Below, one piece after another: positions 12,808-40,017 of a DNA stretch of 64,000 nt (within the stretch, counting starts at the first letter, position 1; each line of letters opens with the position of its first letter). The stretch covers positions 5,312 through 69,311 of the forward strand of contig CAVZML010000006.1 in NCBI GenBank assembly GCA_963776395.1, given 5' to 3'. This DNA comes from an uncultured Chloroflexia bacterium (GTDB lineage Bacteria; Chloroflexota; Limnocylindria; Limnocylindrales; CSP1-4). A model generated the notes under the pieces. The model was not told the origin of the DNA, ran no database searches, and saw only the letters and a program-made list of their open reading frames with translations. Position numbers and translations under genes: made by a program.

Positions 12808-13285
12808 GCCTCCCGCTTCAGCTGAAACTACCACATCGTCTCCGCGCAAGTGGACCTCATATACATCAAGTGGCCGGGGCGGCGGACCCGAGACGTTGCG
12901 GCCATTGAGATCGTAGAGGCCGTTGTGGCAAGCGCACCAGATCTCTTGCAGGTCGCCGCGGTATTGCACGATGCAACCCAGATGCGTGCACGTGGCGGAA
13001 AGCGCGCGATAACTCCCGTCGCTGTTTCTATATGAGCAGGCCCGGACGGCTGCCAAAGCGAAAAATCTTGGCCGAGTTTGGCTTTAGTTCGGCGATCTTG
13101 CCGGCGATGACCTGATCGCCGCCGAGTTCCGCTACAGGCGGGGGAACAAGGTATCGAAGCACGGGATAAATGAAAGACGCGAAGGAACCGAGCAGTCCGC
13201 CGCCAAGAAGGATTTCGATCATTCGCCGGCGCGCCGGTTTGGGCTGGGGATTTCCGTCAGCGGCCATGGGCTGAACTCCAGGCAA
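12804..13285 (-). CDS. Rieske [2Fe-2S] subunit, frameshifted
   Basis: N-terminal [15 protein letters not shown] (Tat-like motif plus TM helix) is in ORF 13028-13285. The cluster-binding motifs CTHLGC and CACHNG are in ORF 12298-13056. The gene runs in frame into cytochrome b, although an ATGA overlap (12804-12807) exists in the +1 frame. Confidence 0.8.
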
Positions 13286-22682: not shown

Positions 22683-22867
22683 GCTCCCGCGATAGCGTTC
22701 ATGGAGAGAATGCCACCCCTCAGGGCAGCCCACTTGTGGGCAGAAGAAGGAGCACGAAAAGGCCCTCAAGAGTAAAGAAAGAGAGAGCAGCCGCAAACGA
22801 CCGCCAGTTCCTCTCCGAGAGGAGGAAGCGCTCTGAGGCAATGTTGGCCCGTATGACCTGAAAACGA

Positions 22868-22944
22868 TGGTAGGCCCGTGGGGACTCGAACCCCAGACCT
22901 CTACCGTGTCAAGGTAGCGCTCTAACCAACTGAGCTACGGGCCT
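22868..22944 (-). tRNA. tRNA-Val (anticodon GAC)
   Basis: Folded by hand into a 77-nt cloverleaf: acceptor AGGCCCG/CGGGCCT, D-arm GCTC-AGTTGGTTA-GAGC, anticodon arm CTACC-TTGACAC-GGTAG, T-arm TGGGG-TTCGAGT-CCCCA, discriminator A and an encoded CCA. Confidence 0.92.
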
Positions 22945-22995
22945 AATGGTGCAAAATCATTCAGTTAGGCAACCTCGATTGTAACCCACGTCCAG

Positions 22996-23021
22996 GTTGG
23001 TGCACAAATTGGTGCACACCT
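22996..23021 (+). repeat. 26-bp direct repeat, left copy (GTTGGTGCACAAATTGGTGCACACCT)
   Basis: Matches 37328-37353 with 2 mismatches. Contains two GTGCAC palindromes 12 bp apart. Lies 51 bp from the 5' end of the tRNA. Confidence 0.7.
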
Positions 23022-23270
23022 TTCTGAATTTCTTGTGTAGCGACTCCCACCAAAGCTTGCCGCTGTGCTTCCGGTCGGATACCCAAATTCCCGACAAGTC
23101 GGAAGTCATCCCGCAACTTCTTCTCGACCGTGAAGTTTGTTTACGCGCTAAGGCGTGTTCTTGCCTGTTGAGTCTGGTGCCTGAAGCTCCGAGCGGTACG
23201 AGCCGCTTGTCCGTTTGCTGAGGCTTATCAACTGGCAGCTGCGACGGATGACGCCCCTGAACTACGTGGC

Positions 23271-26211
23271 TCAGCTTTCATCCTCTTTGTAGTCATCTTC
23301 ATCGTCATCACAACAGCAGGGGTATCCTTGCTGGCAACCACTCTGCTTGTGGTGCTGTTCGCAACACCCCTTACGGCAGTCCTCACAATCTTCCTTGCAG
23401 CGGCAGTCACTCCAGATGGTGTAAGCGAGCACTTCCAGAGTCTTGATGGGAGTAATCGGATCGTCGCTCTCAATGACCAGCTCGCAACATCTCGGGCACT
23501 TTTCGGTTGCTTTGTATCGAATGACGACGCTCAGGCACGAACCCGGGTGCAACGTCGCTGGGAAAGGATTGTTGATCAACTTCCAATGGCGGTTCTTCCG
23601 CTTGAACGCAACGCTGGTCACGTGCAGGGGGCACTGGCCCACGTTACAAATGGATAGAGTGCGGTCTGCACAGCAGCAAGCCTTCACCCCGCCGAAGTGC
23701 GTCGAGCCGGTCACAGCGAGCTTGCCGGAAGGAGCGTTGCCTGACACAGCGATTGTCTTTGGACCGGCGGGATCATTGCTGAACACGGTGATCGTAGCCG
23801 ACTGTGCGCCGTGGACGGCGGGCTGAAAGCGGATCGGTACTTCAATGGCAGTGCCCGCCTCGACCGTGAACGGGAAAACCAGCACGCTCGGGACTAGGAA
23901 CTCGCCGGACGACGAAGTAATACTGTTCACGGAAAGCGTGCAATGCCCGGCATTGCACAAGGTCACCGGTCCGTCTGCGAAGGAACCGATGCAGACATTC
24001 CCGAACTCGCCCGAATCGGCCACCATCGTGACGAGCCTTGGTGCAGGCGCGCTGCCCGAAACCTGGATAACCTTGGGACTCTTCAAGTCGTCGCTGGTTA
24101 CTGTGATCTTAGCAAGGTGCGTGCCGACGCTGGTGGGTTTGAAGCGGATCGGGATCTCGATTGAGTCGCCTGCGCCCAGGGCCAACGGGCTAGACAACAC
24201 CGAGGGAACCTGGAATTCCCCTGACGAGGAACTGATTCCGAAGATCGACAGTTGGCAGGCCCCGTTGTTGTTGAGCGTGAGTTCCATATCCATGAACCCG
24301 CCGACGCAAACATCGCCGAAGTTCCCGCTATCGGCGATTACGGTTTCTAGCGAGCCCGTTCCACGAGTGCCGCTGGTCTTGACATCGAAGTGTGGTGTGA
24401 CCGGGTCGTTGCTGGTGATTCGGATCGTGGCGGTCTCGAGAACACCTCGCTTCGTAGGCTCGAAGACAACAGTGAAATCCACATGATCGGTTGGGCTGAT
24501 CGTCAGAGGCGTGACTGGATTTGGAAGCACTGTGAAGTCGGGCGAACCCGAAAGGAGCGCAACGCTGTCAACAATCAGGTCAGTATTACCAACGTTGAAG
24601 ACTTCTATGGTCAAGAATTGGGGCTCGCTGCAAACGGTTCCGAAGAGCAGATCGTCCTGCAGGTTGACGGCGATTGCGGGATCAGCCGCGACAATGTTGA
24701 CGACAACCGGGTCAGAAGGAATTCCGTTCGCAATCACCGTCATGTTATACACGCCAGTCGGCATTGCCGACGGAATGTCGATGATAGTGGTGTGAACATT
24801 AGGGCCCGGCGCAATGCCCATGGTTGAGTAGTCATGCGTGCGCGCGTAAACCACTGTGCTGCTTGTTGTGCTGGTCAGCCTCACGATGGGGTAGTTGGTC
24901 GCCATCTGTGCGTCGTCCCCATAGCTGCACGCCTGCGTCAATCCGTTGATCTGCTTGCCCGAAACCGTGTAATGGTGCCCGAAGGCCATGATCGAGGTGA
25001 ATCCGGTGATGACGGGTTTCCAGGCAGCCTTGGGCGCGGGATCGGCAGGATCCGCATTGAAGATACCAATCGAGTTGATAAACATCGACGCAAACAGAAC
25101 CTGCCCGGTCGGCAGCAACAAGAACCGCGTGGCCCACGTATCGTCCGTGTTGTTGGTGGGCTGTTGAGACGAGGGAAGCTGTTTGAGAACATTCGTGGAA
25201 GGATCATATTCAAAGAGCCTGGTAGGGCCGGACCAGAAAGGATTGGCCCCTCCTTCATTCTTAGTGTTTCCGGCCACGCACAACACTTTGCCGCTTGGGA
25301 GGAGACATCCCGGTGCATCGATATTGGTCATCAGCGGGTTGATCGGACTAGCCGAGGAGTCTGCGGGAAAGTCAGGACCGGCGGACCAACCAGTGCCAGG
25401 CGTGTAGATGCCTGTGTGGCCCGTACCACCGATCGCAAGCAGCTTGCCATTCGGCAGAAGAATACTGGGGCCGAGTTCATTGACCGTAGCGGTCGTAGGA
25501 GGGCTCGTGGAATTTCGGTAACAACCGGCAAGGCTAGATTCGGAGGGTGGGACCCACGAGAGTCCAGAGATCGGTGGCCGGATCATAGATCTCAGTAGTT
25601 TGGGGATTGTTGGAAATATCAATCGCCATCACGGTGCCATCCTGAAGCAACGTCCAGGTTTCCTCGTTGCAACTTCCGGTTTTCGAAGACGGCGCACCCG
25701 GTGTAAATCCCAGTCCGGCTTCCGTCCAAGAATCACTTGCCGGGTCCCATATTGCAGTTCTGAACGTATTCAGGGATCCGAGAAGCACGCGCCCATCGGC
25801 GAGGATGCAGCCCGCGGCATCCCCCGCCACCCAGTTGAACGCGGCGGGTTTGTTCATGGGCGACCACTTATTGGTCAGAGGATCGAAGATTTCACCGAGT
25901 GGAGAATCAGATGGCGCCGAAGGATCGTCGGAGGTCTCTCCACCAATCACGTAGACTCTCCCGTCCCGAAACACACCAGAGGAGAAATACTGCCGCGCGT
26001 TAGCCATATGAATAACCGCTGACCATGATCCCGTTTCATACTTACCTTGGGCATCCGGGGTATAGCGGTACCATTCATTCCGTGGGGTAGCGCCGGGGTT
26101 CTCGGCATTGTGAATTAATACCGATCCATCTGTGAGCAGAATCATGGTATCGGGAAAGAACGTTTTCGTGCCGAATTTCGGCGGTGTAAGGTAGGTCCAC
26201 TTTACGGCCAT
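23271..26211 (-). CDS. Large kelch/galactose-oxidase-like protein with four Ig-like repeats and a Cys/Asp-rich tail (one frameshift near 25540-25620)
   Basis: ORF 25534-26211 plus ORF 23271-25622. Repeated kelch-like blades (DGRVYVIGG, DGRVLLGS, NGKLLAIGG, SGKVLCVAG, TGQVLFAS) are followed by a galactose-oxidase C-terminal-like Ig domain (YPIVRLTS...VYNMTVIANGIPS). Then come four ~105-aa repeats of pattern FG.VC.G....L.L.N.G...L.......S.EF.VPSVL......G..I..PI.F.P. The tail is CRCKEDCEDCRKGCCEQHHKQSGCQQGYPCCCDDDEDD. Confidence 0.7.
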
Positions 26212-26576
26212 ATTTTCTCCTGTCGACAGGGTCCCCGATTTTTGTGGGCGTACTTCTCCCGACAGAATTTCGGGTTCTAGTGCGCGCCCTTAAGGTGCTG
26301 TGAACTCCTCTGCCCATTTCTTGCTCTGGCTAGGGCGACTCGCAGCAATGGAAAGAGGCACTGCAAGACACGAGCCAACTCGGAGCGGAAAAAACGCCAT
26401 TCGACGTTCCCCGCGTTTGCTATGACATACAGCTCCGGGAACCTAATTCAGACCGATCGCTCGTTCGTTTTCGCTTGGTGGGCCTACCGGAATAGATAGT
26501 GGCGACTATCCGTTCCGCTAGTGTCCTGTAACTTGAATAAGTGAAACAAATATCGCGATCCGTGCGAATTGCTCTA

Positions 26577-26962
26577 TAAGGAGGAGAGCATCGCGCTGGA
26601 CGACCCAAGACCACTCTGAAATTGAATGAGGACGAGGAACGCGAATTCCCATCTCTGGCTCACCGATCACGCTCGGCACCGAAGCTGGCGCGCCGCGCGC
26701 GCATTGTGCTGGCTTGCGCCACGGAGGGAGTGACAACAAAACGGTGGCGCGCCAGGTGCACATCAACCCCGGAACGGTCGGCAAGGGGCGCAACCGATTC
26801 CTGCAGGACCGCCGCGAGGGGCCGTTTGAAGGGCTCGGTTTTTCGTACCAGGAACTCGCCAAGCTCTCCGACCCTGCCGTTCGCAAGACTGTCGGGATCG
26901 GCGCATACTCGCCCAAAATCATGACTTTGGGCAATCAGAAGTTTGAGAATTCGCGCTTGTAG
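26577..26962 (+). pseudogene. IS630-type transposase N-terminal HTH remnant
   Basis: GRPKTTLKLNEDEERE...RSRSAPKLARRARIVLACATEG, then (frame change) VARQVHINPGTVGK.RNRFLQDR.EG. This is the typical pattern of IS630-family HTH domains. There is no start codon and no DDE domain. Confidence 0.5.
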
Positions 26963-27909
26963 ATTCATCAATTTAGACAAGGGGCGTGAGGAGGTTTTTG
27001 GGCAGCCCTGATCGCTGCAAGGTGTTCACAAAACAGAATATCGAACACCATGTCGCACGAAGATGTTATGTGAATTTCAACGGGTTGGGGCAACCTGGAT
27101 AGGAAGGATATTTGAACGTGCGAACCGAGATTGTGGAATCGACACGGAATACTACTGGCGACCTATTTTGGACGAAGCGCAATTCCAGATCGCCCAGGAC
27201 CGGTTGTTTGCCTACGTGGGCAATTCGCTCATGGCTGATGTGGCGAAGGCCGGTCAACTCGCATCTTTCGTGGAGGAAAGCGATCGATTTTTCATCCCGC
27301 CGCCACACGGAGCTTTAAACAGCGCTCGACATGACCACTGTCCAAGGTGACCTTCGGGCCGCTCGACTGCGTGGTCATCAACCGCCATCGATTATTACAA
27401 GGATCTCAGCGGGATGGACCGAAGAAAGAGGGATCCGCGTGAACCATGGCATGGGACATCAACACCCGCAGAAGCCAACTATGTCCGTTTCCGACCGGAT
27501 TCGGGGTCAATCGAGGAATTCCTCCGAGGCATTTTCGATAAGGAGACTAGAAGGAAGCCGCTAGGTGGTTGCGGCGGATGCGTTGAGCTATGGGGATTTG
27601 CACGGACACTTTTCTGGCCAAGGCATTTCCGATCAAGGCTAGCGACAATCCGCACAAGATCTGACTGTGGCTTCCCTCATCGCAGGTCTCGCCCTGAGAA
27701 AAGCCCGCAGGATCGCTCTCAAAATCTCTTGTAATGCTTTTGGCTACGGCAGTACGAATAACAGGTTCTCGATTGGCCATTTCGCTCGTAAACTGAAATG
27801 AAACGAACCCGACATCCTGAGCACTATTTAACATTAAGACAAAGATGGAGCTAGCCTGAGTGATCGGCTACTGATAACGGCGGCTTTCGTTCGAACAAGT
27901 AGTGGACTC

Positions 27910-28200
27910 GTGGATAAACGTATCAAGATCGCCTTGGAAATCATGTGCCGCTCTTCCGCTGGGGCTCTCACAGTCTCCGACGTGGCCGCAGAAGTCGGGC
28001 TGAGCCCCTCCCGCTTTGAGCATATTTTGAAAGACGCGACCGGACGAACTTTCCGGCAACATAAACGTAGCGGACGCATCACGCGAGCGAAGACACTTCT
28101 TCAAAACTGACACTTGTCATTGAAGGAGATTGCCTATCTGCACCGGTTACTCCTTCGCCTTCGAGTTTCTCTCGCGCATTCCGCCGCTCGGTTTACCGAT
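27910..28200 (+). pseudogene. AraC-type HTH fragment (frameshifted, no sensor domain)
   Basis: LTVSDVAAEVGLSPSRFEHILKDATGRTFRQH...RITRAKTLLQN is followed by a stop, then SLKEIAY..TGYS.A.EF-like second-helix remnants in other frames. Confidence 0.5.
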
Positions 28201-28452
28201 CACCGTCACAATATCGAATTGGTGCTACTTATCGGGCGGCTAAGCGACCCCTTTGAAACACAGCAGGTCAAGTCAAGACGTAGCAGATTCGGTCAAGCGA
28301 TTCTCGTTGGCGCGGAGGCCTCCGCACCGTATATTCGCGCACTCGAAGGTTGCCCCCGAATGTTGTTGGCGAAAATCGACGGTGGACAAATCAGGTTCGT
28401 GAGTTAAGCAGCTGAGGCGCCTGCACATGTTGCAGGTTGCAAGGAGGAACAG

Positions 28453-28803
28453 ATGGCCCAGGCCGTATCCATTTCACTAAGTAAGTTTACCAGTTCGGTG
28501 CAAGCCGCGGTGAAGGCGGCCATCGCAAAGCATCCCAAATTTAAGGTTGAGGTGCCTCAGGGCGTGACCGTGGCCTTCTTAATCCGTGGTTTTCCCGTGC
28601 CCGACAGCATCGTATCGAACGTAACATTGGGCGAAACGCAGGCGTTCGCGAACGATGTCGCCGCGCAGATTGCCGGTTCACACCCGGAAGCTTTCGCTCT
28701 GACAAAATCGGGCCAAGCAACCGAAGGAGCCGTGCTATCGGTGGGCCGTCACGTAATCTGTGGGATTCCGCCTGTGACTCAGGTCTTTGAAATGGAGAAA
28801 TAG
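28453..28803 (+). CDS. Hypothetical protein (116 aa)
   Basis: Strong RBS aaggagga 5 nt upstream of the ATG, and an intact ORF. No family recognised. Confidence 0.55.
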   Translation: MAQAVSISLSKFTSSVQAAVKAAIAKHPKFKVEVPQGVTVAFLIRGFPVPDSIVSNVTLGETQAFANDVAAQIAGSHPEAFALTKSGQATEGAVLSVGRHVICGIPPVTQVFEMEK

Positions 28804-29243
28804 TGGGAGAGCGCGTGTCAAAGCTTTGTCCCAGCGCGCAGCCTGGCATGGATCAGTGCACGGTCTTAGGTGTAGTCCAGCATCAAGGTCCGAGACCAAT
28901 GCTGGAATATCTTAAGGAACCTGTATCTGCCAGCCCAGACATTCTGGCGATGGCCGCTCCGTTGAAACCAACCGAAGTCTTTCGCCTGTCTGCGACCTGT
29001 GCAGAACACAAGTGCCCACATTTCGATGGTGCCGATTGTCGGCTCGCCACCAGAGTAGTGCGCATTTTGCCAGCCGTAGTCGACATCTTGCCACCTTGTA
29101 TCATTCGCAAGGGATGCCGGTGGTATTTCCAGGAGGGTGGTGCTGCGTGCAAGCGGTGTCCTGAGATCACAACCGTGACCTATGATCTGTCGGCGCAACT
29201 CGAAGAGGTTTCCGGGCTCCCAGTGATTGAGGAAACAACGTAA
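28803..29243 (+). CDS. Hypothetical Cys-rich protein (146 aa)
   Basis: The GTG start overlaps the stop of the upstream ORF. About 10 Cys, including CAEHKCPHFDGADC and CKRC. No family recognised. Confidence 0.5.
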   Translation: MGERVSKLCPSAQPGMDQCTVLGVVQHQGPRPMLEYLKEPVSASPDILAMAAPLKPTEVFRLSATCAEHKCPHFDGADCRLATRVVRILPAVVDILPPCIIRKGCRWYFQEGGAACKRCPEITTVTYDLSAQLEEVSGLPVIEETT

Positions 29244-29480
29244 ACGCGATTAGTCCAGATGGTTTCCTGGCTGCTGGTCAACCCACAGAACGTGACGTTG
29301 CATGAAGATCCTCTTCAAGCTCCACCTTTACCGTCGTAGGTCGCAGTGGTATATGCGCCCGCCGAGCACAAAGAGATTGCACCCTTCGCAAACCGGAGCG
29401 GCGTGTGCCTTGTTGGCTCCTTTGATGTTTTCCTGTCCAAGGTCAAAAGGATATGTGGGTCATTTGAAGGGAGGCCTAAC

Positions 29481-30227
29481 ATGGCTATTGCAAAATACAG
29501 TTTTGCTGCGAATGGATGGATTGGCCCGGTTGTGGAGGGTAGAAATAGGTTCGACTGGAAAATAGCGAAGACGAGAAATCCGATTTGCTTCCTTGTCTTG
29601 CCTCAGCTGGCCCTCCGTTTAGTTGTGATGGTCGCCGTCTGTGGGGCAGGCATAGCTCAAGCCGCTAGCTGCATTCCAGGTAGCCAGGCCGTACCTGCTG
29701 GCTCTTACCTCCAAACATGCAGTGGAGCCTCCGTTTCCGGCACCACCTTGAGGGCCGACTGCAAGGAGGTCACGGGCTCCGCACACACAGGCAGCGAGCT
29801 TCGTGACTGCCAGAATTGTCTGCCTCAATCGGACATCGCCAACTATAACGGTGAGTTGCATTGCAGCAAGGGGAATATGCCTTTCTCTGGCTCCTACATG
29901 CAGACCTGTCGCTTCATTTATGTCATCGGCACCACGCTCATCGCCGATTGCAAGGAGGATTCGGGTCGATGGCACGGTGCAGTGCAGCTACCCAACATGT
30001 TGAGTTGTTTGAACGGCTCCATTATCAACGTTTCTGGTGTTCTTCAGTGCAGCTCGGCACCACCTCCGGGCGGCTCCTACAAGCAGTCCTGTGATGATAT
30101 TTGGTACTTCGATGGCGTCTTGCATGCCCGTTGCAGGACGACATCAGGCAACCGGAACTCAACGCAGTCGAAGGCATCGCCAGGGTCAGCCTGTAGCAAT
30201 CAGAACGGCAACTTGCAGTGTCAATAA
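29481..30227 (+). CDS. Secreted CVNH-like (cyanovirin-N homology) lectin-repeat protein
   Basis: RBS gaagggagg before the ATG at 29481, and a hydrophobic signal-like segment (LRLVVMVAVCGAGIAQAAS). Three ~55-aa repeats have the pattern SY.QTC......GTTL.A.C....G.......L......I.N..G.L.C, resembling cyanovirin half-domains. Confidence 0.6.
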   Translation: MAIAKYSFAANGWIGPVVEGRNRFDWKIAKTRNPICFLVLPQLALRLVVMVAVCGAGIAQAASCIPGSQAVPAGSYLQTCSGASVSGTTLRADCKEVTGSAHTGSELRDCQNCLPQSDIANYNGELHCSKGNMPFSGSYMQTCRFIYVIGTTLIADCKEDSGRWHGAVQLPNMLSCLNGSIINVSGVLQCSSAPPPGGSYKQSCDDIWYFDGVLHARCRTTSGNRNSTQSKASPGSACSNQNGNLQCQ

Positions 30228-30520
30228 ACTCCCCAATTGCAGTACTGCAAAAATGGCCGGGTGCGACACCAAGGTCAAACCGTTTGACCCGTCCTGCTGA
30301 GCCATCTCCTTAGGTTGAGCCACGCTGAATTGTCGATTGAGCTCACCTGAACCTGTCAACGAATCTGCCGGAAGAAGACGTTCGCCAACCCAGATCGGTA
30401 AATGCGCAAGTGATAATTGCACGTCGACGAATTCGAGGCAATAAGCGTTATCGGCCGCGACTTTGACTTTTGACTGTAGGTCGCTTCACGCGCTTCTTCA
30501 TGTAGAATGACTCCATTCTG

Positions 30521-31150
30521 GTGCGGAGTTCGGCGGCTGGCATGGCAGAGCTCAAGAAGGACTGGGTATTAAACCCAGGGGCGTTTCAGCGTCTTCTCGA
30601 ATGGCTGGACCGCGGTGGAGATTCGGCCGGACACGGGTACCTTGAAGTGCGCCGACGGCTCACGGCATATTTCGATCGAAAAAACTGTCACTCATCCGAC
30701 GAATTGGCTGACGAAACGCTCAATCGCATTGCTCGCAAACTCGAAGAAAAGGGCACTATCATTGACGTATCTCCGCTTCACTATTGCTATATCGTGGCTA
30801 AGTTTGTTTTCCTGGAAAGCTTTCGCCGCGCCAAACTTAGGGAGAACCGCACCACGGAGTTCTTGGCTTCTGATTGCCACTCCCTGGATTCCGCTGCGGC
30901 TTTCGAACTGAGCGCCGGGGACTCGAAGGAAAAGCTGTTCGGCTGCCTCGAGGAATGCTTGAATAAACTGGCGGTCGAGGATCGCGAACTCATTCTAGAG
31001 TACTATCGCGGCGGACAGCGGGTGAAGATCGAGCGGCGGTCCGAACTTGCCAATCGTCTCGGCCTCACGGCGAACGCACTCTGCATTCGGGCATGTCGCA
31101 TTCGTAACAAACTGGAGGCTTGCGTAAAAACCTGTTCGAGCAGGAAATGA
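30521..31150 (+). CDS. ECF-type sigma-70 family factor
   Basis: 209 aa with a region-4-like C-terminus (DRELILEYYRGG...ELANRLGLTANALCIRACRIRNKL) and a divergent region 2. Its stop overlaps the next start (ATGA at 31147-31150). Confidence 0.7.
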   Translation: MRSSAAGMAELKKDWVLNPGAFQRLLEWLDRGGDSAGHGYLEVRRRLTAYFDRKNCHSSDELADETLNRIARKLEEKGTIIDVSPLHYCYIVAKFVFLESFRRAKLRENRTTEFLASDCHSLDSAAAFELSAGDSKEKLFGCLEECLNKLAVEDRELILEYYRGGQRVKIERRSELANRLGLTANALCIRACRIRNKLEACVKTCSSRK

Positions 31151-32163
31151 CAGATTTTGGCGGTTTTTGTCTTATGGGAGTAGGGATGATGGGTACCGCA
31201 GACAAGCACGAAGACGATGAGCAACTTCTGACCCGTTACCTGCTCGGCGCGCTGTCCGGCGACGAGGCGCAACGCCTGGACGAACAGAGCGTAACGGACG
31301 ATGAGTTCGCATGGCGACTGGATGCGGTCGAGCATGACCTCGTGGATGCGTATGCAAATAATGAACTATCAGGCGAAACGCTGGAGCGTTTCAAGAACTT
31401 CTACCTGAGCTCTGCCAAACGATTAGGGAAGGTAGAGTTTTCGCGAACTCTGCTGCGCTTCGCCGAAAAGCCGGCTCTGGCGGACATCTCAGCCGGGGCT
31501 AAGCGAGCTACTCCGGGTTCCAGACGGCTCGACAAATCGCTGGAAGCCCGTGTTCCCGTGCGATGGTTTGGGACGCCTCACTGGGGACTGCAGATGGGGT
31601 TAGCGGGCGCGTCGCTGCTGATGCTGTTCGCCGCAGCCTTTCTGTTTGTCAAAAATGGGCGACTGCAAGAACAGATCGCCCAGGCATATAACCAGCAAAT
31701 GGCTCTGGAACAACGAGCGCACAAACTGGAAAACGAGCTTGATGAGCAACGCTCCACTGATACCAAATTGCAGACCGAACTGGAGAAATTAAGCGAATCG
31801 ACGCCGGCGGCCAGGGCACTGAAGACAATCGCCGTGCTGCTGTTGCCTCAGACACGCGGATTCAGTCAAGTTACGACCGTTTCGATTCCTCCTGCGACCG
31901 ATCGCGTCACGCTGCGACTACAACTCGAGTCCGATGATTTCCCCATATATCGGGCCGCTTTGAAGGACCCCGCAAGCGGGCACAATGTATGGAGCGGCGG
32001 CGATTTGAAAGCGAGATCGGAAGGGCAGAAGAGCGTTGTATCCCTGAGCGTGCCTGCAACCGTGTTGAAGCAACAGAATTACAGCGTAGAACTCACCGGT
32101 GTTCCCGCGCTGGGAGCTTCTGAAATTCTCAGCAGCTACGCGTTCAAGGCGGTGTTCAGGTAG
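31147..32163 (+). CDS. Single-pass anti-sigma-like membrane protein
   Basis: N-terminal LLTRYLLGALSGDEAQRLDEQ motif typical of anti-sigma N-domains. One TM helix (GLAGASLLMLFAAAFLFV), then a coiled-coil segment and a ~150-aa external beta-rich domain. Translationally coupled to the sigma gene. Confidence 0.65.
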   Translation: MTDFGGFCLMGVGMMGTADKHEDDEQLLTRYLLGALSGDEAQRLDEQSVTDDEFAWRLDAVEHDLVDAYANNELSGETLERFKNFYLSSAKRLGKVEFSRTLLRFAEKPALADISAGAKRATPGSRRLDKSLEARVPVRWFGTPHWGLQMGLAGASLLMLFAAAFLFVKNGRLQEQIAQAYNQQMALEQRAHKLENELDEQRSTDTKLQTELEKLSESTPAARALKTIAVLLLPQTRGFSQVTTVSIPPATDRVTLRLQLESDDFPIYRAALKDPASGHNVWSGGDLKARSEGQKSVVSLSVPATVLKQQNYSVELTGVPALGASEILSSYAFKAVFR

Positions 32164-32203
32164 GGTCACGAAGCGCTGCTAGCTAGTGTGCTTGGGAGGC
32201 TAC

Positions 32204-35200
32204 ATGAGGCCAAGAACGTTGCACTGCCGATCGCGAGACGTTCGTTGGGCTCTTATGTCAATCATAGCGAGCGTTTTGTTTCTCATTTGTTTGAATAGAA
32301 CTGCCGTCGCGCAAAAGACATCGCCTAATTCTGGTGAGCAAGCCACCGTCCCGAACACGCTATCGTTGCACAGGCCGATCGACCGAATCCTGAAGCCTGG
32401 CGAGCAACACAGCTATCAATTTGCCCTGGTTGCTGGGCAATACGCCAGACTGGCGGTCGAACAGCGCGGTATCGAACTTGTGCCTGAAGTTCTTGAGCCT
32501 GACCAGGGACTGCTCGCCAAATTCAATGACCAAGTGCGGCCAACAGGCGAGCAACAAGTCTTTATCGTGGCGGACACGGCCGGCAACTATACCGTGAGGA
32601 TCAAAGCGAACCTGAAAGGAATGCCTGCAGGTTCCTACTCGATTCGCGTTGATGAGATTCGCGCAGCGGGGGAGGACGACCGGGCCCTATTTGAGGCGCG
32701 CAAACTGCAGACCCAGGCATTGTCGCTGCACCAGCCGGCAAGTACGATGAGGAGCTTCCGCTCTCCGAACGTGCCGTGGCCATCACGGAAAGAGTATCCT
32801 CGGCGAGTCCAGCTTATCTGGCGGGATTGATTCGAGACCTCGGAGCGGTCTACTGGTTGAAGCAGAATCCCAAGGCAAAAGCGCTCTTCGAGCGTTCCGT
32901 CGCGATGTTTGAGCAAGCATTGGGCCCCGAGGATCCGCAAACCGCTTACACCGAGAGCTGGTTGGGAATCGTGTATCGTGTTGATGGAGACTACGACAAA
33001 GCGGAACAGATATTGCGACGTGACCTGGCAATTTTGGAGAAAGAAGTAGGCCCCAACCATCCCTGGGTTGTAAACACACTGAGGAGCCAAGGCATCCTGT
33101 ACGATGCCCGGGGAGATTTCGACAACGCAATGGAGACCACTCAGCGTGCCTTGGGTATCGCGGCGAAAACCGTGGGCGAAGAGTCCCTAGTGTATTCGCA
33201 ACTTGAGAACAACGTGGGCTTGGTCTTCCTTGAAAAGCATGAATACACACACGCTGGCCCGCACCTGGAGCGCAGCCTAGCGATACAGGAGAAACTCTTC
33301 GGGCCGAGCTATCCGCCAATCGCAATCATCCTGCAGAACCTCGGGATCGTCGCACGCGAGGCGAAAAAAGATCCTCTGGCGCACCAGTACTACGACCGCG
33401 CGCTGGCCATTCGCGTGAAAAACCTGGGCCCGGAGAGTCGCGACGTTGCCGGCACCCTGGTAAACATTGCGAATCTGTATCACTCCGAAGGCGACGACAC
33501 AAAATGCCTGCAAACTCACCTTCGTGCGCTCAAGATCGTGGAGAAACGGCAAGCCCCAGCGAGGCGTTGACGATCATTTCTCTGGTAATGTCGCGAAAAC
33601 GTATGCAGCGCTGGGTGATTTGCCGAATGCGGTTTTGTACCAAGCCAGGACCGATGCCGCCATTGAACGGGCCATCGCCGCAAACGTCATCATCGGGTCA
33701 GAGCGGCAAAAACTACTTTTTCTCCATGGCGATATCTCGAATCGGACGGACCGAACCGTCTCACTCAGCTTGCAATTGGCGCCTAAGAATCCCCAGGCGA
33801 GTTCGTTGGCCGCTTTGGTCCTTCTACAGCGCAAGGGGCGTGTGCTCGATGCGATGACCGACTCGTTCGGCAAGCTGAGGCAGCGCGCGGATGCCGGCGA
33901 TCAGGCGCTATTGGATGAATTGATGAAAACCACCACGCAACTGGCACAGTTAGTTTTATATAGCCCAGGAAAGACTCCTGCTGAGGAGCTCCAGAAACGG
34001 GTGAGAGAACTAGAGGATCGCAAAGAGGACCTGGAAGCGGAAATCAGCCGGCACAGTCTGCAATTCCGTGCGCAGTCCCAGCCCGTGACACTGGAATCAG
34101 TGCAGGCAGCGATTCCAGAGAATACGGCGCTGCTGGAATTTACGGCGTATAAGCCATTCGATCCCAAGTCGATCAGCACCAGCACTAACTACGGCGAGCC
34201 TCGCTATGCTGTCTTCGTGATTCGCAGGACCGGAGCGCCGCACGCAGTGGATCTCGGCGAGGCCAAAGCGATTCAAAAGGCATTAGAGAAGTTTCGCGAA
34301 ACCTTGCGCGATCCGCTGAACGGTGATGTGCGGGAGTCCTCACGAGAGCTGGACGCCATGCTGCTGCAGCCAGTTCGGGGTTTGCTGGGCGACGCAACAC
34401 AGTTGTTGATCTCGCCGGACGGTGACCTCAATCTCATCCCATTTCAGGCGCTGCTCGACGAACAAGGGCATTATTTGTTGCAACGTTATTCGATCGGGTA
34501 TCTGACCACCGGGCGTGACCTCTTGCGCATGCAGATCAGCCCCGCAAGCAAGAAGGCGCCGCTGGTGATGGCCGATCCGGCTTTCGGCGAGCCACAAACG
34601 ACGGAAGTTGTTCGTGCAGGGCAAACCCCACCTCTAACTGTGGCAAGCATGCGCCGCAGCGTCACGACGGCCAAAGATCTCTCCGGTGTCTATTTCGCGC
34701 CGCTCGGTGGCACGGCCATCGAGGCGCGGGCCATTCACAACTTGTTTCCAGAAGCGCAGGTCCTCACGGGACCGCAGGCAGCGAAGGATATTTTGAAACA
34801 AGTCGAAGCCCCGGGCATTCTCCACATTGCCACCCACGGTTTTTTCTTGCAGGAAGCAACCGAAGGTAAAACTTCGCCGCCGAGAACGGCTGCAACGAAA
34901 GACGCTCCTGAGAAAGAAGATCAGCCAGTTTGCGAAATCCGCTTCTTCGATCCGGCCTGGCACTGGCCGGCGCCAATGTGAACAAGACCGCAGCCGACAA
35001 TGGCATTCTCACGGCCCTAGAGGCTTCCGATCTGAACCTCTGGGGTACAAAGCTCGTCACCCTATCGGCCTGCGACACCGGAGTCGGCGAAGTGAAAAAC
35101 GGCGAGGGCGTCTACGGATTACGCCGCGCATTCATCCTGGCCGGCACCGAATCGTTGGTCATGAGCCTCTGGCCCGTCAGCGACTATGTGACGCGACAGC

Positions 35201-35364
35201 TGATGACACAGTATTACACGGGCTTGAAGAACGGCCTCGGCCGAGGCGAGGCGCTGCGGCGGGCGCAACTCGCCATGCTGAATCGCAAGGACCGGCAGCA
35301 CCCCTTTTACTGGGCCAGCTTTATCCAGGTCGGAGAATGGGCCAATCTCGAAGGCAAGCGCTGA
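32204..35364 (+). CDS. Secreted beta-sandwich/TPR/CHAT (caspase-like) protease, about 3 frameshifts
   Basis: Signal peptide (ALMSIIASVLFLICLNRTAVAQ), an N-terminal pre-peptidase-C-terminal-like domain, and TPR units (ORF 32776-33570). The CHAT domain has a His site (ILHIATHGFF, ORF 33467-34981) and a Cys site (LVTLSACDTGVG, ORF 34930-35364). Frame changes occur near 32738, 33550 and 34950. Confidence 0.75.
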
Positions 35365-35533
35365 GCGCCAAGTTCATTCAACCGAAGATCATCTCCAGCG
35401 CACTCTGCCATCTACCACTGAGCAACTCGTGCATCCTGCCGTAAAAAGCCGTCAGCCAAATGCGCGTTTTGCCCAGCGGAACCTCATTTGAAATGTTTTT
35501 GTCTTTTCGTCTTATCCCTACAAGAGCGTCCCC

Positions 35534-37162
35534 TTGGGCACTCCTTATTGTTCTGTGGCGAACGTGGTCAACGGAGGAGATGTGTCCAGATTTCAAACCC
35601 GCTATTTGCGTTGTACTTCGAGCAGGATCATCCTCGGGAAATTCGGAGTTGGCATAGTTGTGGGTCTTGTTGCCGTGCTGTTTGTTGGAGGAATCCTGGC
35701 GGTAGCTGCGGGCGGCAACCGCTTCATTCCGCGTTACGAGGAATTCCCGGATGCGGACGGCGGCCTTGCCAACCTGAATCTCGGCGGACCTACAGACACG
35801 ACCACCAATCCCTTTTTCCAGCCCATGGGCACTAACGGCCGCAGTTGTGTGACGTGCCACCAACCTAGCGACGCTTTTTCCGTTACCCCACGTCACATCC
35901 GTCAGCGCTTCGAGGCCACCCGGGGTACGGACCCGATCTTCCGCCCGGTGGACGGCGCGAACTGTCCAATGGCGGATGTTTCCACAATGGAGGAGAGGCG
36001 CGAGGCCTACAGCCTGCTGTTCAGCAGAGGGCTCATTCGCATCGGCATCGCCGTTCCGGAAAACGCGGACTACCAAGTCGTCGCCGTCTACAACCCGTAC
36101 GGATGCAATGCAACCAATGTCATTTCCATGTACCGGCGTCCGCTGCCGACCACGAATCTTCGCTTCTTGAGCGCGGTGATGTTCGACGGACGGGAATCCA
36201 CTCCGCTCACCGGCACCACCAAAATCATCTACAGCAATTATCCGGATTCGCTCATGGCCGATTTGGCGCACCAGTCGGTTGACGCCACAATCGGCCACGC
36301 ACAGGGAGACGGTACGCGGCCAACCGCGGAGGAGCAGCAGCAGATCGTGGATTTTGAAACGAAACTCTTCACCGCGCAGGTACACGACCGCCACGCCGGT
36401 AGACTTCGAGACGACGGTGCGCAGGGCGGCCCCTATTCTCTTTCTACGCAACCCTTTTTCATTACCATCAATTCAAGCGTACATTTTCTGCTTTCGGCAT
36501 TTGAGCAACCCGGCGGGTTGCTGACTCCGGGCGACGGCCAATTTACCGCGAATATTTTCAATCTTTATGGCAGTTGGGTATACACGAAGGACGACGATCA
36601 CGATCCGCGGACCACCGCACGACAATCCATCGCTCGCGGGGAGTTGCTCTTCAACACCTTGCAGATTCCCATCTCAGGTGTGGCTGGCATCAACGATGAT
36701 GTAGCGGCAGGAGGGCTCGTTGCCGGCGGCATTCCAGTGCTGCAGGGCAATTGCGCCACTTGCCACGACACGCCCAATGTCGGCAATCACTCTTTCCCCA
36801 CGCCCTTGAACATCGGCACCGGGGATCTCTCTCCGGACGACTCTTCCGTCAACCTGGGAGGTTTGGAGGTGAGTTACTTGCCGGAGATCACAGTGTGCAG
36901 GAAAGACCCCACTTCAGGCCTACCGACCAACAACTGTAAGACCACGACTGATCTCGGCCAGGCCTTGATCGATGGTAAGTTCGACCATGTTGGCAAGATT
37001 AAGGGACCGATCCTTCGCGGGCTGGCCGGGCGCGCACCCTATTTCCATAACGGCTCGGCAGCCACGTTACTGGACGCCGTCAACTTCTATGACACCCGCT
37101 TTAATCTGAACCTCAGCCAGCACGACAAAGACGACCTAGTCGCCTTTCTGAAGACTCTGTAG
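35534..37162 (+). CDS. Membrane-anchored di-haem cytochrome c peroxidase/MauG-family-like protein
   Basis: N-terminal TM helix (FGVGIVVGLVAVLFVGGILAVAA), two CxxCH motifs (CVTCHQPSDAF, CATCHDTPNVG) and the conserved GRAPYFHNGSAATLLDAVNFY region. The exact start is uncertain. Confidence 0.7.
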   Translation: MGTPYCSVANVVNGGDVSRFQTRYLRCTSSRIILGKFGVGIVVGLVAVLFVGGILAVAAGGNRFIPRYEEFPDADGGLANLNLGGPTDTTTNPFFQPMGTNGRSCVTCHQPSDAFSVTPRHIRQRFEATRGTDPIFRPVDGANCPMADVSTMEERREAYSLLFSRGLIRIGIAVPENADYQVVAVYNPYGCNATNVISMYRRPLPTTNLRFLSAVMFDGRESTPLTGTTKIIYSNYPDSLMADLAHQSVDATIGHAQGDGTRPTAEEQQQIVDFETKLFTAQVHDRHAGRLRDDGAQGGPYSLSTQPFFITINSSVHFLLSAFEQPGGLLTPGDGQFTANIFNLYGSWVYTKDDDHDPRTTARQSIARGELLFNTLQIPISGVAGINDDVAAGGLVAGGIPVLQGNCATCHDTPNVGNHSFPTPLNIGTGDLSPDDSSVNLGGLEVSYLPEITVCRKDPTSGLPTNNCKTTTDLGQALIDGKFDHVGKIKGPILRGLAGRAPYFHNGSAATLLDAVNFYDTRFNLNLSQHDKDDLVAFLKTL

Positions 37163-37168
37163 GCATAA

Positions 37169-37199
37169 GGAAACGGTACCTGCCGAACGTACAGTTTCC
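37169..37199 (+). terminator. Hairpin downstream of the peroxidase-like gene (weak terminator candidate)
   Basis: GGAAACGGTAC-ctgccgaac-GTACAGTTTCC forms an 11-bp stem with one mismatch. No U-tract follows. Confidence 0.3.
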
Positions 37200-37327
37200 A
37201 CCCACCAAGCCAATCTTGCGCGAATTAGGAGCGAAAGGTACGAACTTCTCCGGGCGCGCTTATCGAAGAAGTGGCTCTTAGTACTCGCCTCTACGAGCTC
37301 ATAATCCGCCAGCGGCAGGTTCAGAGA

Positions 37328-37353
37328 GTTGGTGCACATTTTGGTGCACACCT
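37328..37353 (+). repeat. 26-bp direct repeat, right copy (GTTGGTGCACATTTTGGTGCACACCT)
   Basis: Partner of 22996-23021. Confidence 0.7.
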
Positions 37354-37460
37354 AGGTCAAATTAGATAGCAAGTGGTAGTAATGGAACGAGCGACCTAAG
37401 TTGCTGGGATATAATGTGATAGCACAAGACGACGGTCGGCAGTAGGTGTCTGGTTTTGAA

Positions 37461-37499
37461 GTGTCAGGGTAGCGCTCTAACCAACTGAGCTACGGGCCT
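37461..37499 (-). repeat. Orphan tRNA-Val 5' half (position 1 to the anticodon loop)
   Basis: 39 nt equal to 22906-22944 apart from one mismatch in the anticodon loop (gtgtcaG versus gtgtcaA). No 3' half follows. Confidence 0.85.
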
Positions 37500-37517
37500 A
37501 TTTACACCTCTAGAATA

Positions 37518-37835: not shown

Positions 37836-38383
37836 CTGCCAGCCTCCGGGTATGCCGTCAGCACGTAGAAACCGTCCGGCCCATCGGCGCGCAGCACAAT
37901 CACTGCATCGGTGCACGCCTCCGCAGCGCTCTCCCCTCGCCGTAAGCTTCGGCCAATCGGCCGGGCCGCCGAATAATGCAGAGCCAGGTTCGGACGCGGA
38001 TAGCCACGCCTCATCCAACTTTCCACGCGCCCGCGTTTGTCTCGCAGCGCTTCAGCCACCGTCTCTTCTGCCGTCGCGCGATCCGTCCACGTAGACGCCG
38101 CCGAAATGTTGCGTTCGCGTTCCAGCCGCTCCGCCAGTTCTGCGTTGGTTCGCGTCACGTGGCGACTCAACGTGTGCCCGCCGCGTTGCTCGTCGCGCTC
38201 CAGATCGTAGCGATCTTTCGTACTTTTGGGTGTCGCGGCTGTTTGCGCAGGACTGCTGCTTTCGACGCCGCTGTTACCAGGCGCGGGCGCCTTTCCGCAT
38301 CCGCCCGCGTGCATGGCCGCCAAGCACAGCATCAGCGCGGCAATCGCGCTAACAATCCATCCCCGCGTGCGCTTCCCCTTCAC
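37832..38383 (-). CDS. Lipoprotein with RNase-A-like (CdiA-CT type) toxin domain
   Basis: Lipobox-like signal (LMLCLAAMHAGGC). The domain carries RGGHTLSRHV..T.AELAERL...ASTWTD.ATAEE.V, resembling bacterial RNase-A-like toxin domains. Confidence 0.55.
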   Translation of the reverse strand: MKGKRTRGWIVSAIAALMLCLAAMHAGGCGKAPAPGNSGVESSSPAQTAATPKSTKDRYDLERDEQRGGHTLSRHVTRTNAELAERLERERNISAASTWTDRATAEETVAEALRDKRGRVESWMRRGYPRPNLALHYSAARPIGRSLRRGESAAEACTDAVIVLRADGPDGFYVLTAYPEAGR

Positions 38384-38518
38384 GTTCCTAGTCCGCTCCC
38401 GTTTCTGCCTAATGCCGCCGTCATCGCATCGCCGCCTCGAGTATACGCATATCCTTCATACCCTCGCACGCCTTCCCTTGGTTGTGACCGCGCCGAACCG
38501 GATGCTATTCTCAACTTT

Positions 38519-39195
38519 ATGGCTGATCTGCAACATCCCTCTCTCGACGACGCGAGCCTCGACTCCGCCACAGCTTCACCGACGACTACGCCTTCGTCTA
38601 TCAATCACTCCGCCCGCCAGGTGGAAGCCCTCCTCGAAGTCACCGAAACCATCGCCCAACAGCGCGACCTCAAAGCTCTCTTCCACGATCTCGCTGAGCG
38701 CCTCCACGGCGTTCTCGCTTTCGACTTTCTGGCTCTGGTCCTTCACGAGCCCTCCAACAACACCATGCGCCTTCATATCCTCGAGACGCACGATCCTGTC
38801 GAGCCCAAGCCGCAAAGCGAATTTCCCGTCGACGAAGTCCCCGCAGGCTGGGTTTGGCAGCATCAGCAACCATTCGTCATTCTTGATTCCTCCAAGGACA
38901 CGCGCTATCCCGCCTTCATGCAGCGCCTGCAAGACGCCGGTGTTCATACCATGGCGATGCTCCCGCTCACCACCGCGCAGCATCGCCTCGGCGCTCTTGG
39001 TTTCGGCCGCTACATTCCTCAAGGAGTCACTGAGCCTGAGATCGACTTCATGAAGCGCGTCGCCGCTCAAGTCGCGGTCGCTGTTGACAATGCCCTCAAC
39101 TTCCAAGCCGCCGAAGCCGCGCAGAAGCGACTCTCTCGCGAACGCGACCGCTTGCAGGTTCTGCTGGAGATCAACAATCTCCTCGTCTCTCCCGC
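38519..39195 (+). pseudogene. GAF-domain N-terminus of a sigma-54 activator-like regulator, truncated at the composition break
   Basis: MADLQHPS... GAF domain (LKALFHDLAERL...LALVLHEP...LPLTTAQHRLGALGF), then the linker coiled coil (RLSRERDRLQVLLEINNLLVS). No AAA+ domain follows. Confidence 0.7.
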
Positions 39196-39467
39196 TGGAG
39201 GATGCCGGGTGGGAGGACGACGAGGACCATCCGCGAACCGCAGCCGAGCTGGTCGACGCGTTCCAGGTGACCTGGCTGGTGATCGACGACTGCCTGCGGC
39301 GCTGGACCGAGGAGGATTTTCAGGCCGAGTTCTCGCGGCCCCGGAGGCACGGTCCCGCGTCCACCCGCGCCTGGGTGCTCTGGCACGTCATCGAGCACGA
39401 GCTGCAGCACGGCACGGAGATCGCACTCATTCTTCGCAGCCACGGCCTGCCCACGCTCGACCTGTAG
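39196..39467 (+). pseudogene. DinB-family C-terminal fragment (5'-truncated)
   Basis: ...TAAELVDAFQVTWLVIDDCLRRWTEEDFQ...WVLWHVIEHELQHGTEIALILRSHG in the frame of ORF 39084-39467. There is no N-terminal half. Confidence 0.6.
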
Positions 39468-39609
39468 CAGTCCCGGGCGGCGGTCGGCCAGGCGGTCGAC
39501 CCAGACGGTCGATGATGACAGCCTCGGTAGAATCGGGGTACCGTCGGCCCCCTCGGCGAAGGACCGTGCCTACCGCCAGGGTCGACGCGAATGCACGGAG
39601 GCGTCCCAT

Positions 39610-40017
39610 ATGCTGGCCTTTGTCGTGGAGCTCAAGGACCGCCCGGGCGAGCTCGCCAAGGTGGCGGAGACGATCAGCGCGAAAGGCATCAACATCACCG
39701 GGTTCACCGGGGCGACCTGTGGCGACATGGGCTCCGTCTGCCTGATCACCAACGACGAGTCGGCGACGCGGCGGGCGCTCCAGGACGCGCACTACAAGGC
39801 TCGCGAGCGTGAGCTCGTGGTCGCGACGATCCCGGACAGGCCCGGATCGCTGGCCGACTTCGCCCGCCGGCTCGCGAATGCCGGCGTCAACATCGAGGCC
39901 GCCCTGCCGACGGGCATGAGCGGCGACGGCGTCCACGTCGCGTTCGCCACCAACGACGCGGCGAAGGCGCGCGCTGCGCTCGGCGACGCGGTCCTGAGCG
40001 GGTCCAGCACCCGCTGA
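39610..40017 (+). CDS. Tandem ACT-domain protein
   Basis: Two ACT-like units (VELKDRPGELAKVAETISAKGINI and IPDRPGSLADFARRLANAGVNI). Confidence 0.75.
   Translation: MLAFVVELKDRPGELAKVAETISAKGINITGFTGATCGDMGSVCLITNDESATRRALQDAHYKARERELVVATIPDRPGSLADFARRLANAGVNIEAALPTGMSGDGVHVAFATNDAAKARAALGDAVLSGSSTR

Follow-up and report, generated by a model that had tools for sequence, protein, structure and literature searches.

A split module of ECF-like sigma factor, anti-sigma factor and exported TPR-CHAT protease with a candidate promoter motif in Acidobacteriota

We analyzed a 64,000-nt stretch of an uncultured bacterial contig (GenBank assembly GCA_963776395.1, contig CAVZML010000006.1, positions 5,312 to 69,311; hereafter the window), in which three tightly packed genes on one strand, at 30521-35364, encode an extracytoplasmic function (ECF)-like sigma factor, a single-pass anti-sigma factor and a secreted protein that combines a tetratricopeptide repeat (TPR) array with a CHAT domain. 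CHAT is a caspase-fold protease, and in type III-E systems of clustered regularly interspaced short palindromic repeats (CRISPR) the TPR-CHAT protease Csx29 cleaves Csx30, the partner of an ECF sigma factor (RpoE). An earlier reading of the DNA without database searches (the original prediction) had proposed the same three co-oriented, packed genes, and both the layout and the three assignments stood up to annotation with profile hidden Markov models (Table 1). The module is a split version of the parts list recently described for the fused DdvS/DdvA system. It is quite possibly a functional envelope signaling module that has been mis-sequenced in the window. Tentatively, we propose that its CHAT protein acts in trans as a signal-activated, caspase-fold site-1 protease that would release a four-cysteine ECF-like sigma factor, and that the module represents a large Acidobacteriota family with a turnover-prone regulon of exported proteins.

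The trio was conserved as a unit well beyond the window. A one-genome-per-species scan with an alignment of the sigma factor returned 191 matching stretches, of which the best 80 loci were taken; almost all were labeled Acidobacteriota (Terriglobia/Acidoferrales, Blastocatellia/Pyrinomonadaceae, Thermoanaerobaculia and Chloracidobacterium). The 59 loci that extended 5 kb or more downstream were considered informative, and in 55 of these the sigma, anti-sigma and TPR-CHAT genes followed one another in the same order and on the same strand, at sigma identities down to about 50%, which bears out the co-occurrence envisaged in the original prediction. One locus (L073) had neither anti-sigma nor CHAT gene. 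An analogous trio was found in the cyanobacterium Gloeobacter kilaueensis (L094; CP003587, 3157-7985), comprising a Sigma70_r4 protein of 287 aa, a single-transmembrane protein of 299 aa whose gene overlaps the preceding one by 4 nt, and a TPR-CHAT protein of 994 aa with a signal peptide. Its CHAT protein was 38% identical to that of the window, and its sigma factor and single-transmembrane partner had no detectable similarity to the window sigma and anti-sigma factors; the association therefore seems to recur beyond the Acidobacteria. A CHAT homologue of Solidesulfovibrio (L095) had no sigma gene nearby.

The module was also accompanied by a promoter-like motif. Alignment of the DNA 3' of the CHAT stop codon in Terriglobia loci yielded the bipartite sequence TGAAATGTTTT-N9/10-GTCTTAT, which has the AA...GT geometry described for ECF promoters (PMC6061681). 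A weight matrix was built from these 12 post-CHAT Terriglobia sites, and sites in the spacer between sigma and anti-sigma genes were kept out of the training set. Scanning both strands of the window with this matrix gave exactly two matches of at least 14 bits, one in that spacer (P1) and one past the CHAT gene (P2). At a threshold of at least 20 bits, 154 matches were found in 1.07 Mb of non-redundant loci versus 1 in shuffled sequence, with a motif spacer of 9 nt in 126 sites and of 10 nt in 26. The spacer between sigma and anti-sigma genes carried the motif in 73 of 77 loci, and most loci had it 10-370 nt past the CHAT stop codon, often again further downstream. Repeat copies were seen in Pyrinomonadaceae, for example at +109, +1216, +2418 and +3577 in L082. 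Copies on the opposite strand, 60-240 nt 5' of the sigma gene and preceding divergent genes, were present in L001 (at 2201, minus strand), L022, L030, L032, L035, L043 and L083, and such a copy was not found in the window. The motif was absent from the Gloeobacter locus, whose sigma factor is unrelated. Two motif-like matches flanked the TPR-CHAT gene of Solidesulfovibrio (4094, minus strand, 29.0 bits; 8669, plus strand, 24.4 bits), and these may be chance matches in AT-rich spacers.

The sigma gene itself seemed to be expressed differently. No copy of the motif lay 5' of sigma on its own strand in the loci scanned with the matrix, and a search for an ECF-type promoter at this position by dyad enumeration and alignment recovered housekeeping-like elements alone. 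These comprised an extended -10-like element in the window (TGTAGAAT), kept as tTCaTGTAGAAT in most Terriglobia loci, and, in its place in Pyrinomonadaceae loci, TTGATG-N17-TATGCT about 90 nt 5' of sigma; both would be housekeeping-type promoters of the sigma gene. A generic scan for sigma-70 promoters and terminators, uninformative for the sigma promoter, gave no separate promoter or terminator between the anti-sigma and CHAT genes. We infer that the bipartite motif is a promoter read by the module's own sigma factor, and that anti-sigma and CHAT genes are probably co-transcribed behind an ECF-type promoter, beside a sigma gene with a different one. This would make for an unusual circuit, with sigma behind a housekeeping-type promoter and feedback acting on anti-sigma and CHAT only.

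Table 1. Features of the sigma/anti-sigma/TPR-CHAT module and its flanks in the window (nt, window coordinates)
Feature	Position	Strand	Details
Extended -10-like element, TGTAGAAT	30501..30508	+	33 nt 5' of sigma start
Divergent ECF-like sigma gene	30542..31150	+	202 aa; sub-threshold NCBIfam matches, Pfam and structure matches of relatives
P1, TGACAGATTTT-N10-GTCTTAT	31148..31175	+	24.1 bits; begins on sigma stop codon, ends 10 nt before ATG 31186
Single-pass anti-sigma gene	31189..32163	+	324 aa; zf-HC2 match, AlphaFold2 model; ATG 31186 alternative start
Exported TPR-CHAT protease gene	32204..35364	+	1054 aa after repair; Pfam CHAT/TPR matches, intact relatives
Domains of repaired CHAT protein			signal peptide 1-36, beta-sandwich 50-154, TPR 157-500, helical scaffold 501-637, CHAT 640-1054 (aa)
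His879 codon	34835-34837		IATHGFF
Cys958 codon	35071-35073		LSACDTG
P2, TGAAATGTTTT-N9-GTCTTAT	35489..35515	+	34.1 bits, best in window; perfect consensus; 66 nt 5' of next gene
Di-haem cytochrome c peroxidase/MauG/MbnH-like gene	35582..37162	+	526 aa; N-terminal hydrophobic segment, two CXXCH

The start of the sigma gene was placed at ATG 30542 rather than at GTG 30521, an unconserved alternative, because all close homologues begin MAELKKDW. The protein had no Pfam match at E<=0.01. Among NCBIfam models, TIGR02989 (Sig-70_gvs1) matched residues 54-202 at 7.4e-11 and 42.2 bits, short of the curated cut-off of 124.55 for membership of that subfamily, and the matches to SigZ and to TIGR02937 (1.6e-3) were likewise sub-threshold. 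More was gained from the wider family. The Pfam model Sigma70_r4_2 was matched by 21 of 46 diverse relatives (best 4e-7) and Sigma70_r2 by 2 of them (at 1.5e-5), giving the family the detectable sigma-4 region, with its helix-turn-helix, that characterizes ECF (group 4) sigma factors; at 202 aa, the protein would accommodate sigma-2 and sigma-4 regions only. A profile of the same 46 relatives found the structure of ECF SigE (E = 0.003, positions 51-191) and that of Rhodobacter RpoE (E = 0.014). S100 proteins scored slightly above these ECF structures, which is probably a helical artefact. With a profile of close homologues, nothing was found in PDB at E<=0.1, and its hhalign comparison with Escherichia coli RpoE was not significant. 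On these comparisons, assignment as a sigma factor appears to become firm only through distant relatives. The family is large: a whole-library search gave 3949 cluster representatives at E<=1e-3, of which 2338 remained at E<=1e-10. Two CxxxC pairs (C135 and C139, C194 and C198) flank the sigma-4 region and are invariant or nearly so even where relatives share just 35-50% identity, and a metal or redox site within the sigma factor itself could be built from them.

The anti-sigma factor matched the Pfam model zf-HC2 (PF13490) at 1.5e-5 and 25.4 bits, above the cut-off of 22.2. No conserved Cys or His zinc ligands were present in its N-terminal domain in an alignment of 50 sequences, nor was the H-x3-C-x2-C pattern of zinc-binding anti-sigma domains. 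An AlphaFold2 model (predicted local distance difference test score, pLDDT, 77.7) comprised a helical N-terminal domain (3-101), with the cytoplasmic anti-sigma domain at residues 1-95, a disordered linker (96-130), a long helix (133-204) in which the hydrophobic membrane segment, at about nt 31597-31686, precedes a coiled coil, and, C-terminally, a beta-sandwich (213-323). The external domain therefore measures about 160 aa (residues 164-324), not the 190 or so first estimated. With an N-terminal anti-sigma domain and a gene that adjoins its own sigma gene (adjacent in 73 or more loci), the protein conforms to anti-sigma factors of class I. The original prediction had coupled the two genes through an ATGA overlap. 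These four letters do occur at 31147-31150, but not as a conserved start of the anti-sigma gene: all 50 homologues begin M(S)SADKQ, corresponding to ATG 31186 or 31189, and a 1-nt difference at 31164 in the 97%-identical L001 puts the ATG of the overlap out of frame. Foldseek searches with the ectodomain gave only generic matches, to beta-sandwiches of the immunoglobulin/cupredoxin and phage-baseplate kinds (TM-scores 0.3-0.5). An Arg223-Gly224 pair (nt 31855-31860) was invariant; it lies in a loop (residues 219-228, LLPxTRG) with which the ectodomain sandwich begins and which was modeled with low confidence.

The third gene lies 40 nt further downstream (32163 to 32204), as originally described. 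Pfam CHAT (PF12770) matched its product in two frame pieces, at 7e-33 over profile positions 2-159 and at 8e-46 over 157-289, which together amount to a full-length match to this clan CD caspase fold with catalytic His and Cys; TPR_12 matched at 2e-41. Both catalytic sites picked out in the original prediction were retained and proved invariant across 84 CHAT homologues, 77 of which had a signal-peptide-like N-terminus. At the level of sequence, we regard export of the protein and conservation of its catalytic site as settled. When the sequence alone was compared to solved structures, only the TPR part matched. An AlphaFold2 model of P0121, an intact homologue with 97% identity (pLDDT 88.6, predicted template modeling score 0.86), retrieved Csx29 (8eey_B, 7e-13), separase (1e-12) and DdvA (8rw5 and 8rot, 3e-11) with Foldseek.

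DdvA of Myxococcus xanthus, which the original prediction did not name, carries a zinc-binding anti-sigma domain, a transmembrane helix and a periplasmic TPR-CHAT part on one polypeptide; removal of TPR-CHAT permits cleavage by RseP, and self-cleavage by CHAT has been proposed as the site-1 step (PMC11506125). Both systems pair an ECF-type sigma factor with a single-pass anti-sigma factor that has an N-terminal helical sigma-binding domain, and in both a TPR-CHAT part that bears a His-Cys dyad lies beyond the membrane, on its outer face, for a proposed CHAT site-1 cleavage followed by RseP. They differ in that TPR-CHAT is here encoded by a separate gene beyond a 40-nt spacer and has a signal peptide of its own plus an additional beta-sandwich at the N-terminus, and in that the anti-sigma factor has a small beta-sandwich ectodomain of its own and lacks zinc ligands, whereas DdvA has a CHCC zinc site. 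None of the CHAT homologues listed begins with an anti-sigma domain, as a fusion of the DdvA kind would, and there was no detectable sequence similarity to DdvA or DdvS. The DdvS promoter is GTAA-n16-CGT, and the sigma gene of the present module does not lie behind its own motif. The targets here are exported proteins and not CRISPR or the cyclic oligonucleotide-based antiphage signaling system (CBASS). Outside Myxococcota, the authors reported DdvA-like proteins in a single Comamonas only (PMC11506125), whereas the loci of the module are Acidobacteriota.

The type III-E Craspase (Cas7-11/Csx29/Csx30/RpoE) likewise links a TPR-CHAT protease genetically with an ECF-like sigma factor and with a partner that binds sigma, there the substrate of the protease (PMC10028731), and Csx29 was the best structural match of the CHAT protein. 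Craspase is cytoplasmic and RNA-guided, in contrast to the signal peptide and membrane anti-sigma factor of the module. The original prediction had found no CRISPR array in the window, and we concur: no array was detected with Tandem Repeats Finder and no CRISPR repeat family with Rfam, and none of the four proteins scanned with PADLOC matched a cas gene product. The type III-E analogy is weaker than that with DdvS/DdvA: the type III-E RpoE-like sigma model NF041236 reached only 22.8 bits (E = 7.3e-5) against a cut-off of 100, and PADLOC gave no defense-system match. The idea of a CRISPR-independent, envelope-located analogue of Craspase thus gains a published precedent in DdvA, but its type III-E model was not the closest one.

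Other systems share parts of this logic. In classical regulated intramembrane proteolysis (RseA/DegS/RseP with sigma-E, RsiW/PrsW and RsiV), a membrane anti-sigma factor keeps its ECF sigma factor sequestered behind an extracytoplasmic protease gate; the candidate site-1 protease here differs in having a caspase fold (clan CD) and in being encoded in the operon. A site-2 protease gene was not identified in the window, and none was sought outside the module. The ECF54 genes of Actinobacteria adjoin genes for CHAT proteins, and proteolytic control has been proposed for them, but they have no anti-sigma factor, their context also includes carboxypeptidase and subtilase genes, and they belong to another phylum (PMC8999054). 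CalpL/CalpT/CalpS of type III CRISPR systems similarly employs a dedicated protease to free an ECF sigma factor from its partner, although that protease is a cytoplasmic SAVED-Lon protein activated by cyclic oligoadenylate. A literature search, which included the main text of the ECF classification (Casas-Pastor 2021), found no paper on the split trio or its promoter, and that main text makes no mention of CHAT.

We postulate that the sigma factor is probably made from a housekeeping-type promoter and that the anti-sigma factor would hold it through its zinc-free N-terminal anti-sigma domain. The separately exported TPR-CHAT protein would be the signal-responsive partner of the anti-sigma ectodomain: upon a signal received via its beta-sandwich or TPR parts, CHAT would perform site-1 cleavage of the ectodomain, after which an intramembrane protease would complete the cut, and the freed sigma factor would drive the TGAAATGTTTT-N9/10-GTCTTAT promoters of anti-sigma and CHAT, as feedback, and of genes for exported proteins. 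By analogy with DdvA, the exported CHAT protein may act on the ectodomain, and cleavage of the anti-sigma factor is a plausible prediction. DdvA is the strongest argument for this action, and its fusion of the two parts is a Rosetta-stone argument for a functional link between anti-sigma and CHAT. Also in favor are the conserved order and strand of the trio, the analogous Gloeobacter trio, the fold matches to Csx29, separase and DdvA, the invariant dyad and widespread export signal, the placement and ECF-like geometry of the motif, the invariant Arg-Gly pair, and the intact CHAT gene of 99%-identical assemblies.

Several observations speak against this scheme. The window sigma factor is so divergent that its own assignment rests on sub-threshold matches. 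Three loci (L051, L052 and L093) keep sigma and anti-sigma, including the ectodomain, with no adjacent CHAT gene; the anti-sigma gene is there followed by a resistance-nodulation-division efflux operon, by unrelated genes, or by a di-haem oxidoreductase gene behind the motif. A partial Mantel test associated the ectodomain with the CHAT catalytic domain when controlling for sigma (r = 0.37, p = 0.0005) and gave nothing for the cytoplasmic domain, but sigma and the CHAT domain were associated to a similar degree when controlling for the ectodomain (r = 0.35), which leaves the signal ambiguous. As for where CHAT would cut, Arg223-Gly224 is a mere guess at a candidate site because the specificity of CHAT proteases for the P1 residue is unpredictable. 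Lastly, the anti-sigma and CHAT genes share a putative sigma-dependent promoter, which fits CHAT as an output equally well.

Because of this promoter, CHAT might be an output or feedback component, simply the regulon's first member, working in the periplasm or outside the cell together with the other secreted proteins, while sigma and anti-sigma sense alone via the ectodomain and an unlinked site-1 protease. We consider this unlikely, though deserving of serious weight. The lack of any detected promoter or terminator between the two genes agrees with it, as do the three CHAT-less loci that retain the ectodomain and the nature of the other motif-driven genes, which mostly encode hydrophobic N-termini (55 of 69 targets versus 48% of control open reading frames [ORFs], by a crude hydropathy test). 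Yet the position and order of CHAT are kept in 93% of loci while downstream targets vary freely, and one would hardly expect an effector protease to remain next to the anti-sigma gene as all other targets turn over. The physical fusion of both proteins by DdvA in another phylum and the independent trio in Gloeobacter also point away from a mere output.

Rather improbable, in our judgment, is a CHAT protein that cuts nothing in the anti-sigma factor and serves as co-receptor or guard, either shielding the ectodomain, as RseB does on RseA, until it is titrated, self-cleaved or degraded, or processing a ligand that is a third protein. TPR arrays and beta-sandwiches are protein-binding modules, the TPR-CHAT part of DdvA sterically blocks RseP with its dyad in a resting geometry, and a single promoter that induces both anti-sigma and CHAT would suit a stoichiometric inhibitory pair. 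The His/Cys dyad and its surrounding motifs are invariant in the 84 homologues, however, which speaks for a role of catalysis, and nothing points to a third substrate.

Returning to site-1 cleavage by CHAT as the preferred reading, the genes that the freed sigma factor would control can be approached through the motif. The gene following P2 in the window (Table 1) is a candidate regulon member; its product had weak Pfam/NCBIfam matches (MbnH family, 4.5e-8; RoxA-like) and matched di-haem enzymes and peroxidases in PDB at 1e-4. Among motif sites of at least 24 bits, the first long ORF on the 3' side was an anti-sigma gene in 50 cases, a homologue of the di-haem gene in 13 and another gene in 60. 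Homologues of the di-haem gene came after CHAT in 13 loci, and in L032 and L035 such a homologue was divergent, 5' of sigma, still behind the motif. The opposite-strand motif of L030 and L083 preceded genes for DUF7948/beta-propeller proteins. Other motif targets included DHOR di-haem oxidoreductases, DUF7948 and beta-propeller proteins and TPR proteins, with many belonging to no family. The regulon seems to be made up of secreted proteins that are exchanged rapidly, di-haem peroxidase-like enzymes among them. In Pyrinomonadaceae L059, L060, L074, L081 and L082, three or four small genes in succession were arrayed 3' of CHAT, each gene behind a perfect TGAAATGTTTT-N9-GTCTTAT, and most of these genes encode signal-peptide proteins without a Pfam family. 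Since DdvS/DdvA has a common architecture with the module and controls CBASS and CRISPR-Cas, regulation of an anti-phage defense island was also considered; it is very unlikely, given that no known defense genes occur among the motif targets, that there is no CRISPR array, and that PADLOC matched neither the sigma factor, the anti-sigma factor nor the downstream gene product and gave the CHAT protein a generic TPR match only.

As deposited, the CHAT reading frame is interrupted. The original prediction counted three frame breaks; there are four single-base deletions, at 32732, 33544, 33584 and 34922, of which the middle two lie 40 nt apart and look like one break. Each of these deletions is private to the window. 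An intact CHAT ORF and an identical sigma protein are encoded in three independent metagenome assemblies from different samples, 99% identical over 22867-37517, and the CHAT ORF is also intact in assemblies that are 97% identical. Compared with the three 99%-identical assemblies, the window contains about 12 private 1-nt indels in 14.6 kb, including others at 25515, 25554, 27300, 27380, 27910, 28140, 28154 and 35582. An AraC-type gene (27910-28407) is split by such indels, and at 14.6-17.6 kb the domains of a histidine kinase and of an NtrC-type regulator are likewise distributed across consecutive frames. The breaks are most likely assembly errors, and the gene alive, given their restriction to the window, the unbroken ORF of 99%-identical relatives and the similar indels in other genes here. 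The dN/dS ratio of CHAT against a 97% relative was 0.36, not above the 0.21-0.43 of its neighbors. That CHAT is a genuine pseudogene in a decaying module, a reading suggested by four frameshifting deletions in 3.2 kb while the sigma, anti-sigma and di-haem genes (3.2 kb together) have none, is highly improbable and was dropped in view of the intact relatives, the private indels and the neighbor-like dN/dS; the frame breaks, which the original prediction had allowed might mean a dead gene, are no evidence of one.

The window sequence has a high indel error rate in general, and the Rieske and cytochrome b genes of a bc-type complex, present as overlapping ORFs at 11724-13056 on the minus strand, may represent another frame problem. 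G+C content rises from about 0.59 to 0.70-0.78 at 39100-39300 and remains high through the rest of the window, and an ORF at 37976-39745 encodes a good GAF domain (aa 231-370) followed by Arg/Pro/Ala-rich nonsense. The window looks chimeric at about 39.15-39.2 kb, through a mis-join or two sources. A tRNA gene (22871-22944, minus strand) lies exactly where synteny with the 99%-identical L096 and L097 starts; these two loci have a phage-type integrase beside the tRNA, which the window lacks, and the site is a strain-variable integration site. Directly 5' of sigma, at 29346-30227 on the plus strand, a gene encodes a protein with CVNH repeats (cyanovirin-N-like, mannose-binding lectin) whose N-terminus is hydrophobic. 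The 99% relatives share this gene, the 97% relative L001 lacks it, and it is not preceded by a copy of the motif.

The module occurs commonly in the Acidobacteria of soils, a phylum that is dominant yet little studied, and its promoter motif offers an immediate computational handle on the regulon, independent of experiments. If the proposed mechanism is true, regulated intramembrane proteolysis would gain its first caspase-like site-1 protease shown with separable components. Protease and substrate being split into two proteins, the module would allow a cleaner test of the DdvA model, which in M. xanthus was prevented by an unknown signal and by the presence of protease and substrate on one polypeptide.

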